The notes beneath the pieces were generated by a model, which was not told the origin of the DNA, searched no databases, and saw only the letters and a list, made by a program, of their open reading frames with translations. From Escherichia coli (GTDB taxonomy: Bacteria > Pseudomonadota > Gammaproteobacteria > Enterobacterales > Enterobacteriaceae), in the NCBI RefSeq assembly GCF_003790525.1, contig NZ_CP033632.1: a stretch of DNA of 64,000 bases. One strand, given 5' to 3'. A program made the translations under genes and the position numbers. Positions 43,599 through 43,897 of this stretch are shown piece after piece. The stretch's first letter is position 1. The number at the start of each line of letters is the position of its first letter.

Positions 43599-43897
43599 GC
43601 GGACGTGGCGAAATCGGTAGACGCAGCAGACTTTAAAATTGGAGTGCCCGCGGGGAAATCCGCGGAGTAGAACCGCTCAAAGTCGGGGAACGCTAACGGG
43701 CAATACCCTAAGCCAATCCCGAGCCAAGCCCCTTCGGGGGAAGGTGTAGAGACTGGACGGGCGGCGCCTAAAGCCTTCGGGCAATGGCGAAGGGACAGTC
43801 CAGACCACGAACGTCATCAGACGGCGGCGAAAGTCGAGGTGGTACGAAAATCTGCTTCTCTGTGAGAGTACGGGTTCGAGTCCCGTCGTCCGCACCA
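43599..43897 (+). tRNA. tRNA-Leu (UAA) gene interrupted by a group I intron in the anticodon loop
   Basis: Exons 43599-43633 and 43847-43897 form a type-II tRNA with CCA; 213-nt insert between U34 and A35. Confidence 0.7.
43634..43846 (+). ncRNA. Group I (IC3-like) intron
   Basis: GAGCCAAGC...CCTTCGGG...GAAGGTGTAGAGACTGGACGG core resembles Azoarcus/cyanobacterial pre-tRNA intron; ends in G. Confidence 0.6.

Follow-up and report, generated by a model that had tools for sequence, protein, structure and literature searches.

Group I introns in tRNA-Leu(UAA) genes are known from cyanobacteria and chloroplasts, and have been reported from a gamma-proteobacterium too. The pre-tRNA-Ile(CAU) intron of Azoarcus sp. 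BH72 belongs to subgroup IC3, and its ribozyme has been crystallised. Bacterial IC3 group I introns that interrupt tRNA anticodon loops are already well known as a kind of element; in enterobacterial genomes, to our knowledge, group I introns are regarded as essentially absent outside phages. In Bartonella bacilliformis, the tRNA-Arg(CCU) intron BbgpI was found to be self-splicing; its tRNA gene was unannotated, and tRNAscan-SE found the tRNA only once the intron was removed (PMC7717549). Here, a tRNA-Leu(UAA) gene split by a putative IC3-type group I intron was identified at positions 43599-43897 of a 64,000-nt stretch of Escherichia coli DNA (contig NZ_CP033632.1, assembly GCF_003790525.1; this whole stretch is called the window), beside the gentamicin-resistance gene pair aac(3)-IId and tmrB. 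The BbgpI case parallels the window in that both are unannotated intron-split tRNA genes. The gene was composed of three parts:

43599-43633, plus strand: 5' exon of tRNA-Leu(UAA), with the acceptor 5' strand, the D arm, the anticodon stem 5' strand and C32 U33 U34 (ARAGORN, alignment)
43634-43846, plus strand: predicted group I intron, IC3-type, 213 nt, no open reading frame (ORF), omega-G at 43846 (Rfam, leave-out profile, pair counts, minimum-free-energy fold)
43847-43897, plus strand: 3' exon of tRNA-Leu(UAA), with A35 A36, the anticodon stem 3' strand, the variable arm, the T arm, the acceptor 3' strand, A73 and CCA

When the two exons were joined, ARAGORN reported an 86-nt tRNA-Leu(taa); in intron mode it reported a split tRNA with the same ends, 43599 and 43897. 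The joined molecule had a standard type-II shape, with a 7-bp acceptor stem (GCGGACG/CGTCCGC), the anticodon stem GCAGA/TCTGC, a long variable arm, the T arm ACGGG-TTCGAGT-CCCGT, the discriminator A73 and an encoded CCA. The anticodon loop was interrupted after CUU and resumed at AAAAUCUGC, giving the anticodon UAA, and the 213-nt insert lay between U34 and A35, confirming the gene as a tRNA-Leu(UAA) split at this site. The insert held GAGCCAAGC...GAAGGTGTAGAGACTGGACGG and its last base was G. The expected ligated-exon junction reads GCAGACUU followed by AAAAUCUGC, also written GCAGCAGACUU followed by AAAAUCUGCUUC. An initial annotation, made from the sequence alone, had described a complete type-II tRNA with this anticodon in the two exons and had placed it in the aac(3)-II/tmrB segment; the ARAGORN result agreed with the former, and the latter held as well, the gene being part of the aac(3)-IId/tmrB module, where 93 bp separate it from the stop codon of tmrB.

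Relatives were sought by scanning a single genome of each GTDB species for the core motif GAGCCAAGC-N(4-30)-GAAGGTGTAGAGACTNGACGG, and at least 120 loci were recovered. Nearly all of the listed matches lay inside tRNA genes split in the anticodon loop; the hosts among the matches listed were tRNA-Leu(UAA) (at least 50), tRNA-Arg(CCU) (at least about 20), some tRNA-Met/Ile(CAU) and others. After the splice sites were resolved, at least 59 tRNA-Leu(UAA) loci were obtained, and in 59/59 of those listed the insert occupied the identical position, the 34/35 site that the initial annotation had called canonical. All 59 had ACUU immediately before the 5' site, a GAGU guide a few bases downstream and a 3' site between G and AAAAUC. 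At least 59 homologs with the same split site indicate a widespread bacterial family rather than a one-off. The tRNA-Leu(UAA) intron genes, with the same core, came from Alpha- and Betaproteobacteria, Acidobacteria, candidate phyla and others. More broadly, IC3 introns were found in tRNA-Leu(UAA), Arg(CCU), Ile/Met(CAU), Lys(UUU) and other tRNA genes of at least 110 bacterial genomes (L003-L122; L numbers are our handles for genomes and contigs), in phyla that include Proteobacteria, Actinobacteria (Microbacterium), Acidobacteria, Chloroflexi and candidate phyla.

The secondary structure was derived by hand on the window sequence and comprised the tRNA arms and P1-P9, with P3 and P7 crossing as a pseudoknot; 84/84 of its pairs were canonical in the window. 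It was then compared with two alignments, the first of 45 tRNA-Leu(UAA) genes (MAFFT), the second with the introns of tRNA-Arg(CCU), tRNA-Ile(CAU) and tRNA-Lys genes added. In the first alignment 94.7% of the cells formed standard pairs, compared with 33-44% when the 3' partners were slid by 1-3 columns; 55 pairs were changed on both sides (compensatory), and 0/500 shuffles reached any of the observed pairing measures. P8, P9, P9a, P9b, P2 and P6a all covaried. In the second alignment the intron helices were 89.9% paired, compared with 29-48% when slid, and P3, P8 and P9b were 100% paired and covarying. Among the 45 genes the acceptor, D, anticodon and T arms of the tRNA were 96-100% paired with compensatory changes; the variable-arm pairs, as aligned, were 40% paired, which is an alignment problem in a length-variable arm. 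The elements of the intron were as follows:

43630-43645, plus strand: P1, formed by the exon bases A-C-U-U, the first intron bases and the guide GGAGU, with the splice-site wobble U(43633).G(43642)
43648-43665, plus strand: P2 hairpin, 7 bp, GAAA tetraloop (43655-58); 7/7 pairs covary, 91% paired in the tRNA-Leu set
43673-43678, plus strand: 5' strand of P3, CCGCUC, partner GGGCGG at 43759-43764, in a pseudoknot with P7; 100% paired with 4 covarying pairs in both alignments
43683-43744, plus strand: P4-P5-P5a-P6-P6a domain (pair counts)
43683-88/43717-22, plus strand: P4, 100% paired in the tRNA-Leu set (97-100% over the two alignments)
43692-93/43712-13, plus strand: P5, 98.9% paired, with a G-C to C-G exchange
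43698-700/43706-08, plus strand: P5a, from the hand-derived structure
43724-25/43743-44, plus strand: P6, from the hand-derived structure
43729-32/43737-40, plus strand: P6a, UUCG loop; 97% paired, 3 covarying pairs
43749-43754, plus strand: 5' strand of P7, G(A)GACU, with the bulged A43750 and the partner AGUCC at 43797-43801; presumed guanosine-binding G-C pair 43751-43800
43765-43789, plus strand: P8/P8a hairpin, UUCG loop; P8 100% paired and P8a 94%, each with 3 covarying pairs
43804-43843, plus strand: P9 three-way junction, with P9 at 43804-08/43839-43, P9a at 43812-15/43820-23 and P9b at 43825-28/43833-36

The wobble U(43633).G(43642) was kept in 45/45 homologs, and the flanking P1 pairs were paired in 42-45 of the 45. 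P9, P9a and P9b were 93-100% paired in the 45-gene set with 3-4 covarying pairs per helix; P9b, which carries a GAAA tetraloop at 43829-32, was 100% paired across the other host-tRNA families. G43846, the omega-G, was invariant in both alignments. The P7 strands G(A)GACU/AGUCC aligned to P7 of the Rfam group I model Intron_gpI (RF00028) and were identical in 45/45 sequences, hence without a covariation signal. The internal loop CCUAAAG/CAAUGG in P8 resembles a tetraloop receptor, and P5 has the internal loop GCUAAC/UAAGC; both are presumably variants of the 11-nt receptor and might dock the tetraloops. When the intron alone was folded without constraints, the minimum-free-energy structure contained P3, P4, P5, P5a, P6a, P8, P8a, P9, P9a and P9b. 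The group I fold proposed in the initial annotation, with the P3-P7 core as its critical part, was thus borne out by the pair counts from P1 to P9 including the P3/P7 pseudoknot, with every core pair canonical in the window and P3 fully paired and covarying at four pairs. When 43 homologs were made into a DNA profile, with the window and its closest relative left out, nhmmer gave a single match in the 64-kb window, at 43599-43897 (model positions 1-305, E = 2.9e-75); the intron-only version of this leave-out profile gave E = 2.4e-50. Taken at the level of sequence, the evidence supports an intact-looking IC3-type group I intron. That the site resembles a split tRNA gene by chance, or is a degenerate pseudo-tRNA into which unrelated DNA was inserted, is next to inconceivable: standard annotation tools are silent there, but the profile match, the 84/84 canonical pairs, the strong covariation and the 59 listed homologs with the identical split site refute it.

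Neither default ARAGORN nor an Rfam scan at the gathering threshold reported anything at 43599-43897. A permissive local Rfam scan gave RF00028 at 36.8 bits (E = 1e-7, model positions 1-253), with the P3-P9 core matched. The comparison with this model, which the initial annotation had named as a check, therefore succeeded as a local match and fell short of the gathering score of 50. Relatives scored 47.7 (L057), 43.8 (L037), 34.0 (L046) and 31.9 bits (L077), and neither the closest relative L121 nor L113, a member of the Bartonella tRNA-Arg family, was reported by RF00028 at E <= 0.001. Because every genuine relative tested was also below 50, the low score is a property of the Rfam model, and the silence of the default detectors reflects their limits and not the absence of the element. 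RefSeq listed no feature under the stretch in the E. coli genomes that carry it, which is explained by the sub-threshold scores of every relative tested; it is likely that the tRNA genes of the tested members are missing from standard annotations for the same reason.

The window intron resembles the cyanobacterial and plastid tRNA-Leu(UAA) introns in its host gene, its U34/A35 site, the U.G wobble, the terminal G and the lack of an ORF. Unlike these, the window copy lies on mobile resistance DNA and not on a chromosome or plastid genome, and its closest listed relatives are alphaproteobacterial rather than cyanobacterial, although the pattern GUGUAGAGACU probably excluded cyanobacterial sequences from the search. 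The tRNA-Ile(CAU) introns L018, L053, L057, L075 and L092 were aligned as homologs of the Azoarcus intron. These have in common with the window the J3/4 bases AAA, P4 UCGG../..CCGA, GAGCCAAGC, GAAGGUGUAGAGACU and J8/7 AAGGnAnAGUCC, together with GAAA tetraloops capping P2 and P9, internal loops in P5 and P8 that resemble receptors, and the hairpin pairs of P3, P4, P7, P8 and P9. The resemblance to the Azoarcus core that the initial annotation had noted was therefore found in actual tRNA-Ile(CAU) introns, and in the tRNA-Arg(CCU) family as well. The host tRNA differs, with a guide sequence adapted to it, and the window intron has a P9/P9a/P9b three-way junction, a P5a stem and a short UUCG-capped P6a, whereas the tRNA-Ile type is without the P9/P9a extension. 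The alphaproteobacterial tRNA-Arg(CCU) intron (Agrobacterium tumefaciens family; L113 and six others) is very similar in sequence and architecture, including the P9 extension; it differs in its host tRNA and splice-site context, and those copies are chromosomal, not plasmid-borne.

Approximately 1,270 PLSDB plasmids carried the stretch at >=99% identity, in hosts including Escherichia, Klebsiella, Salmonella, Acinetobacter, Aeromonas, Vibrio and others. It was present in 635 of 5,426 complete E. coli genomes (about 12%), and of its placements there 588 were plasmid-borne and 82 chromosomal. A sister module with aac(3)-IIe, found on about 650 plasmids and 96.5% identical, had no tRNA; the two modules part within the spacer just past tmrB, at about 43944-43981, and no divergent tRNA copy was found in the aac(3)-IIe modules. 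A search of the open-access literature, with subscription literature outside it, found no mention of an intron-split tRNA-Leu in the tmrB/aac(3) module; the location, the prevalence and the use of this intron as a donor marker appear to be unreported.

The closest listed relative of the tRNA gene was chromosomal (L121, labelled Mesorhizobium sp. RMAD-H1, NZ_JACHWN01), with 93.7% identity over all 299 nt. The homology extended 140 nt upstream, starting at 43459, and stopped exactly at the CCA end; tmrB, aac(3) and DUF3883 were all absent from the flanks of L121, and the neighbouring genes were uninformative. The next closest listed relatives, at 77-80%, were Sphingomonadales and other alphaproteobacteria. 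The tmrB-aac(3) part (43993-45440) was 86% identical in nucleotides and 88% in amino acids to an overlapping Antibiotic_NAT/AAA-ATPase gene pair on large contigs (L123-L125, L136, L137); the aac(3)-IId protein was 87.8% identical to the product of the Antibiotic_NAT gene overlapping tmrB in L123-L125. The flanks of these Sinorhizobium-like contigs (ECF sigma factor, EF-hand proteins, BA14K) were syntenic with Sinorhizobium meliloti, which itself has a tmrB homolog alone (81%). In L137-L139 (TmrB 83%), a single BLAST alignment ran from aac(3) through tmrB, the spacer and the 3' exon into the last ~45 nt of the intron (from 43803). Each of these contigs thus has, beside tmrB and in the same orientation, a 95-nt partial tRNA copy (intron P9 plus 3' exon) with unrelated DNA upstream:

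L137, ~5640-5735: partial tRNA-Leu copy (BLAST alignment)
L138, ~915-1009: partial tRNA-Leu copy (BLAST alignment)
L139, ~735-828: partial tRNA-Leu copy (BLAST alignment)

The partial copy looks like an attR-type remnant of an island that would have integrated at tRNA-Leu, with an attachment site reaching into the intron. Since such a partial 3' copy marks island integration beside the native downstream flank, our inference is that a Hyphomicrobiales lineage has tRNA-Leu(UAA), then tmrB and aac(3) convergent with it, as its native chromosomal order, and that the tRNA moved together with these neighbours. A metagenome scan for the donor flank, in which a non-module base was required left of the junction, returned L147 only and no donor chromosome. 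A 2021 compilation of the origins of antibiotic-resistance genes gives no origin for AAC(3)-II (PMC7782503); the comparisons made here point to a rhizobial (Hyphomicrobiales) origin of the aac(3)-II/tmrB pair. The claim that the tRNA gene marks the donor lineage of a high-GC module stood at about the order level, through L121 and the Sinorhizobium-like tmrB-aac(3) pairs, and failed for the module as a whole, which is a mosaic with only 43437-45440 alphaproteobacterial.

The annotated order of the segment was IS26 or ISCfr1, DUF3883, two small ORFs, an unannotated gap, the tmrB-like ATPase (minus strand), aac(3)-IId (minus strand) and IS26 or IS10. Its parts, and the features of the alphaproteobacterial part, were as follows:

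41917-43293: DUF3883/ScoMcrA-type gene plus the small ORF 'hyp75', 94-95% to helicase-hyp-DUF3883 defence loci; named relatives Stutzerimonas and Pseudomonas
43294-43436: fragment of an unrelated gene, the 5' end of a 155-aa ORF whose truncated N-terminus is 'hyp63'; 100% identical to a single metagenomic contig, L147, both flanks differing
43437-45440: tRNA-Leu with intron, tmrB and aac(3)-IId; alphaproteobacterial fragment
43437-43598, plus strand: native 5' flank of the tRNA gene, 43459-43598 conserved with L121; left junction 43436/43437 set by L147
43898-43990: spacer of 93 bp from the tRNA 3' end to the tmrB stop codon, same alphaproteobacterial fragment
43991-44533, minus strand: tmrB-like AAA ATPase gene (RefSeq annotation), convergent with the tRNA; homologs at 81-88% in Sinorhizobium-like chromosomal contexts
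44546-45406, minus strand: aac(3)-IId (RefSeq annotation), same fragment; IS10 abuts at 45441

A single high-GC donor for the whole ISCfr1/IS26-to-IS26 segment was rejected, 41917-43293 and 43294-43436 having other relatives. The DUF3883 gene (Pfam ScoMcrA_N and NOV_C) and the small ORF upstream of it were a fragment of a defence-like locus and matched metagenomic contigs L142-L145 at 94-95% identity. An IS1182-family transposase gene directly follows the DUF3883 gene in Stutzerimonas kunmingensis (L132), as ISCfr1 does in pCTX-M3 (NC_004464); an intermediate host resembling Pseudomonas thus probably supplied the DUF3883 part of the module. The annotated hypothetical protein WP_000951934 (43318-43509) was the cut-off N-terminus of the 155-aa protein that is intact on L147. 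Assignment of the L147 ORF as a PA-IL-type lectin was dropped, there being no Pfam or NCBIfam match. With a 2.5-kb L147 query that includes the 43294-43436 piece, 1,898 plasmid records were matched, a larger number than have the tRNA, and the top listed matches all covered this piece only; it may occur in other contexts too.

On the resistance side, the window has an IS10 insertion upstream of aac(3)-IId, 34 bp from its start codon. RNA-OUT was located at 45487-45556 on the minus strand, and its outward-facing promoter points toward aac(3)-IId and tmrB and, in antisense, toward the tRNA gene; this promoter may drive the resistance genes here. Elsewhere in the window the features were ordinary ones for a plasmid, namely a sok antitoxin RNA at 7208-7382 (114 bits) and tandem AgrB antisense-RNA matches at 51284-51370 and 51945-52032 (56 and 52 bits). 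Three ordinary tRNA genes (Asn-GTT, Thr-TGT and Met/Ile-CAT) were present on the plasmid backbone at 23712-23865 and 25670-25745, in a stretch 100% common to ~95-kb non-mobilizable E. coli plasmids; we take this Asn/Thr/Met-Ile set to be that of P1-like phage-plasmids.

The locus is very probably best explained as an alphaproteobacterial, most likely Hyphomicrobiales, chromosomal tRNA-Leu(UAA) gene with an IC3-type intron that was the neighbour of tmrB-aac(3)-II and was captured with it on the ~2-kb fragment 43437-45440. This fragment would then have entered the mobile DNA that now circulates on enterobacterial plasmids. The primary transcript would fold into the P1-P9 group I architecture, and the guide GGAGU would pair with the exon bases ACUU, setting the splice-site U in the U.G wobble. 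Exogenous guanosine bound in P7 would attack after U34; the terminal G (43846) would take the same P7 site while the freed 5' exon attacks the 3' splice site, and the ligated product would be a tRNA-Leu(UAA) with its encoded CCA and A73 discriminator. Transcription and self-splicing are predicted in this way for the donor and for enterobacteria alike. The hosts that carry the gene today most likely have it as a passenger, retained through its tight linkage to tmrB (93 bp) and not by selection.

Several observations weigh against this explanation. A consensus scan of the flanks found no sigma-70 promoter and no intrinsic terminator, and a relaxed scan yielded a weak alphaproteobacterial-type promoter candidate (GATGAC-N16-CTAGGT, 43527-43554, 8/12 matches). 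The aac(3)-tmrB genes are transcribed toward the tRNA gene, and their transcription would be antisense to it. The expression and splicing proposed above are read from sequence, and the folding energy of the intron was not unusual (z = -1.37). P7 and most of P4 were invariant and gave no covariation signal, for P7 partly because the pattern used to collect the homologs, a core motif searched in one genome per species, covered P6/P7. The RF00028 score stayed under the gathering score. As to the donor, L121 is Phyllobacteriaceae by NCBI taxonomy and Mesorhizobium only by its database label; the closest relatives were 86-94% identical and none exceeded 94%.

The passenger could be entirely silent, a genuine gene that is not transcribed, spliced or processed in enterobacteria and persists as inert DNA. 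We consider this a serious possibility, somewhat short of an even chance. It agrees with the missing E. coli-type promoter and terminator, with a native upstream region cut down to 162 bp that adjoins a fragment of an unrelated gene, and with convergent aac(3)-tmrB transcription, possibly driven by the IS10 34 bp upstream of aac(3)-IId, running antisense to the tRNA; identity of the gene across plasmids would then reflect recent spread and not selection. However, every structural element needed for splicing is intact, and the 140 nt conserved with L121, presumably with the native promoter, were retained. Splicing in E. coli is established for foreign group I introns (Tetrahymena, T4 td and cyanobacterial tRNA-Leu), and plasmids commonly show read-through transcription. 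From these sequence features, activity of the gene in enterobacteria appears about as probable as inactivity.

It is improbable that the tRNA gene is instead an attachment-site copy left by a tmrB-aac(3) island integrating at tRNA-Leu(UAA). The 95-nt partial copy beside tmrB in L137-L139, with unrelated DNA upstream, is what integration at the 3' end of a tRNA gene typically leaves, and the homology with L121 ends exactly at CCA. The standard model, however, puts the native chromosome after the partial copy, which would make tmrB-aac(3) the chromosomal side in L137-L139, and tmrB-aac(3) lies in conserved chromosomal synteny in Sinorhizobium-like genomes. In the window the tRNA gene is complete and has a conserved upstream region of its own; a search of the window for a further copy of the tRNA 3' end came up empty, and no integrase adjoins the tRNA gene.

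Selection for the gene as cargo, with spliced tRNA-Leu(UAA) being made and helping the host or plasmid, e.g. in decoding UUA codons, is more doubtful still and is rated highly improbable. About 94% of IId-type modules keep the whole tRNA (1,255 records at >=80% coverage vs 1,331 for a tmrB-proximal query at >=99% identity), the tRNA is of standard type-II shape with A73 and a CCA encoded in the gene, and the other tRNA genes on the window backbone show that plasmid-borne tRNAs are tolerated. Yet linkage to tmrB at 93 bp alone predicts such retention, and the aac(3)-IIe module (~650 plasmids) spreads equally well without the tRNA. The neighbouring genes use UUA 0-1 times each, E. coli has its own tRNA-Leu(UAA), and no expression signal was found. 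A selective role in enterobacteria is thus unlikely, and the co-mobilised passenger gene remains the preferred explanation.

These results show that an intact-looking group I intron has gone unannotated in ~1,270 plasmids and ~12% of complete E. coli genomes, despite the rarity expected of such introns there. They expose a blind spot in annotation, in which the Rfam gathering score and tRNA finders without an intron mode miss a whole family of bacterial tRNA introns; genomes in which these are overlooked seem to be without a tRNA-Leu(UAA), tRNA-Arg(CCU) or tRNA-Ile(CAU) gene. The tRNA and its intron provide a marker in physical linkage with aac(3)-IId that evolves slowly and is informative about lineage. 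With the Sinorhizobium-like tmrB-aac(3) homologs, the origin of one of the commonest gentamicin-resistance genes is narrowed to soil- and plant-associated Hyphomicrobiales, and 43437-45440 offers a concrete 2-kb query for finding the donor. A bolder proposal, which we regard as decidedly improbable, is that the intron self-splices in clinical Enterobacterales and that the foreign tRNA-Leu(UAA) and the free ribozyme RNA affect translation or the fitness of plasmid or host. If true, about one in nine sequenced E. coli strains would carry a functional, naturally spreading ribozyme-tRNA cargo, not inert baggage.

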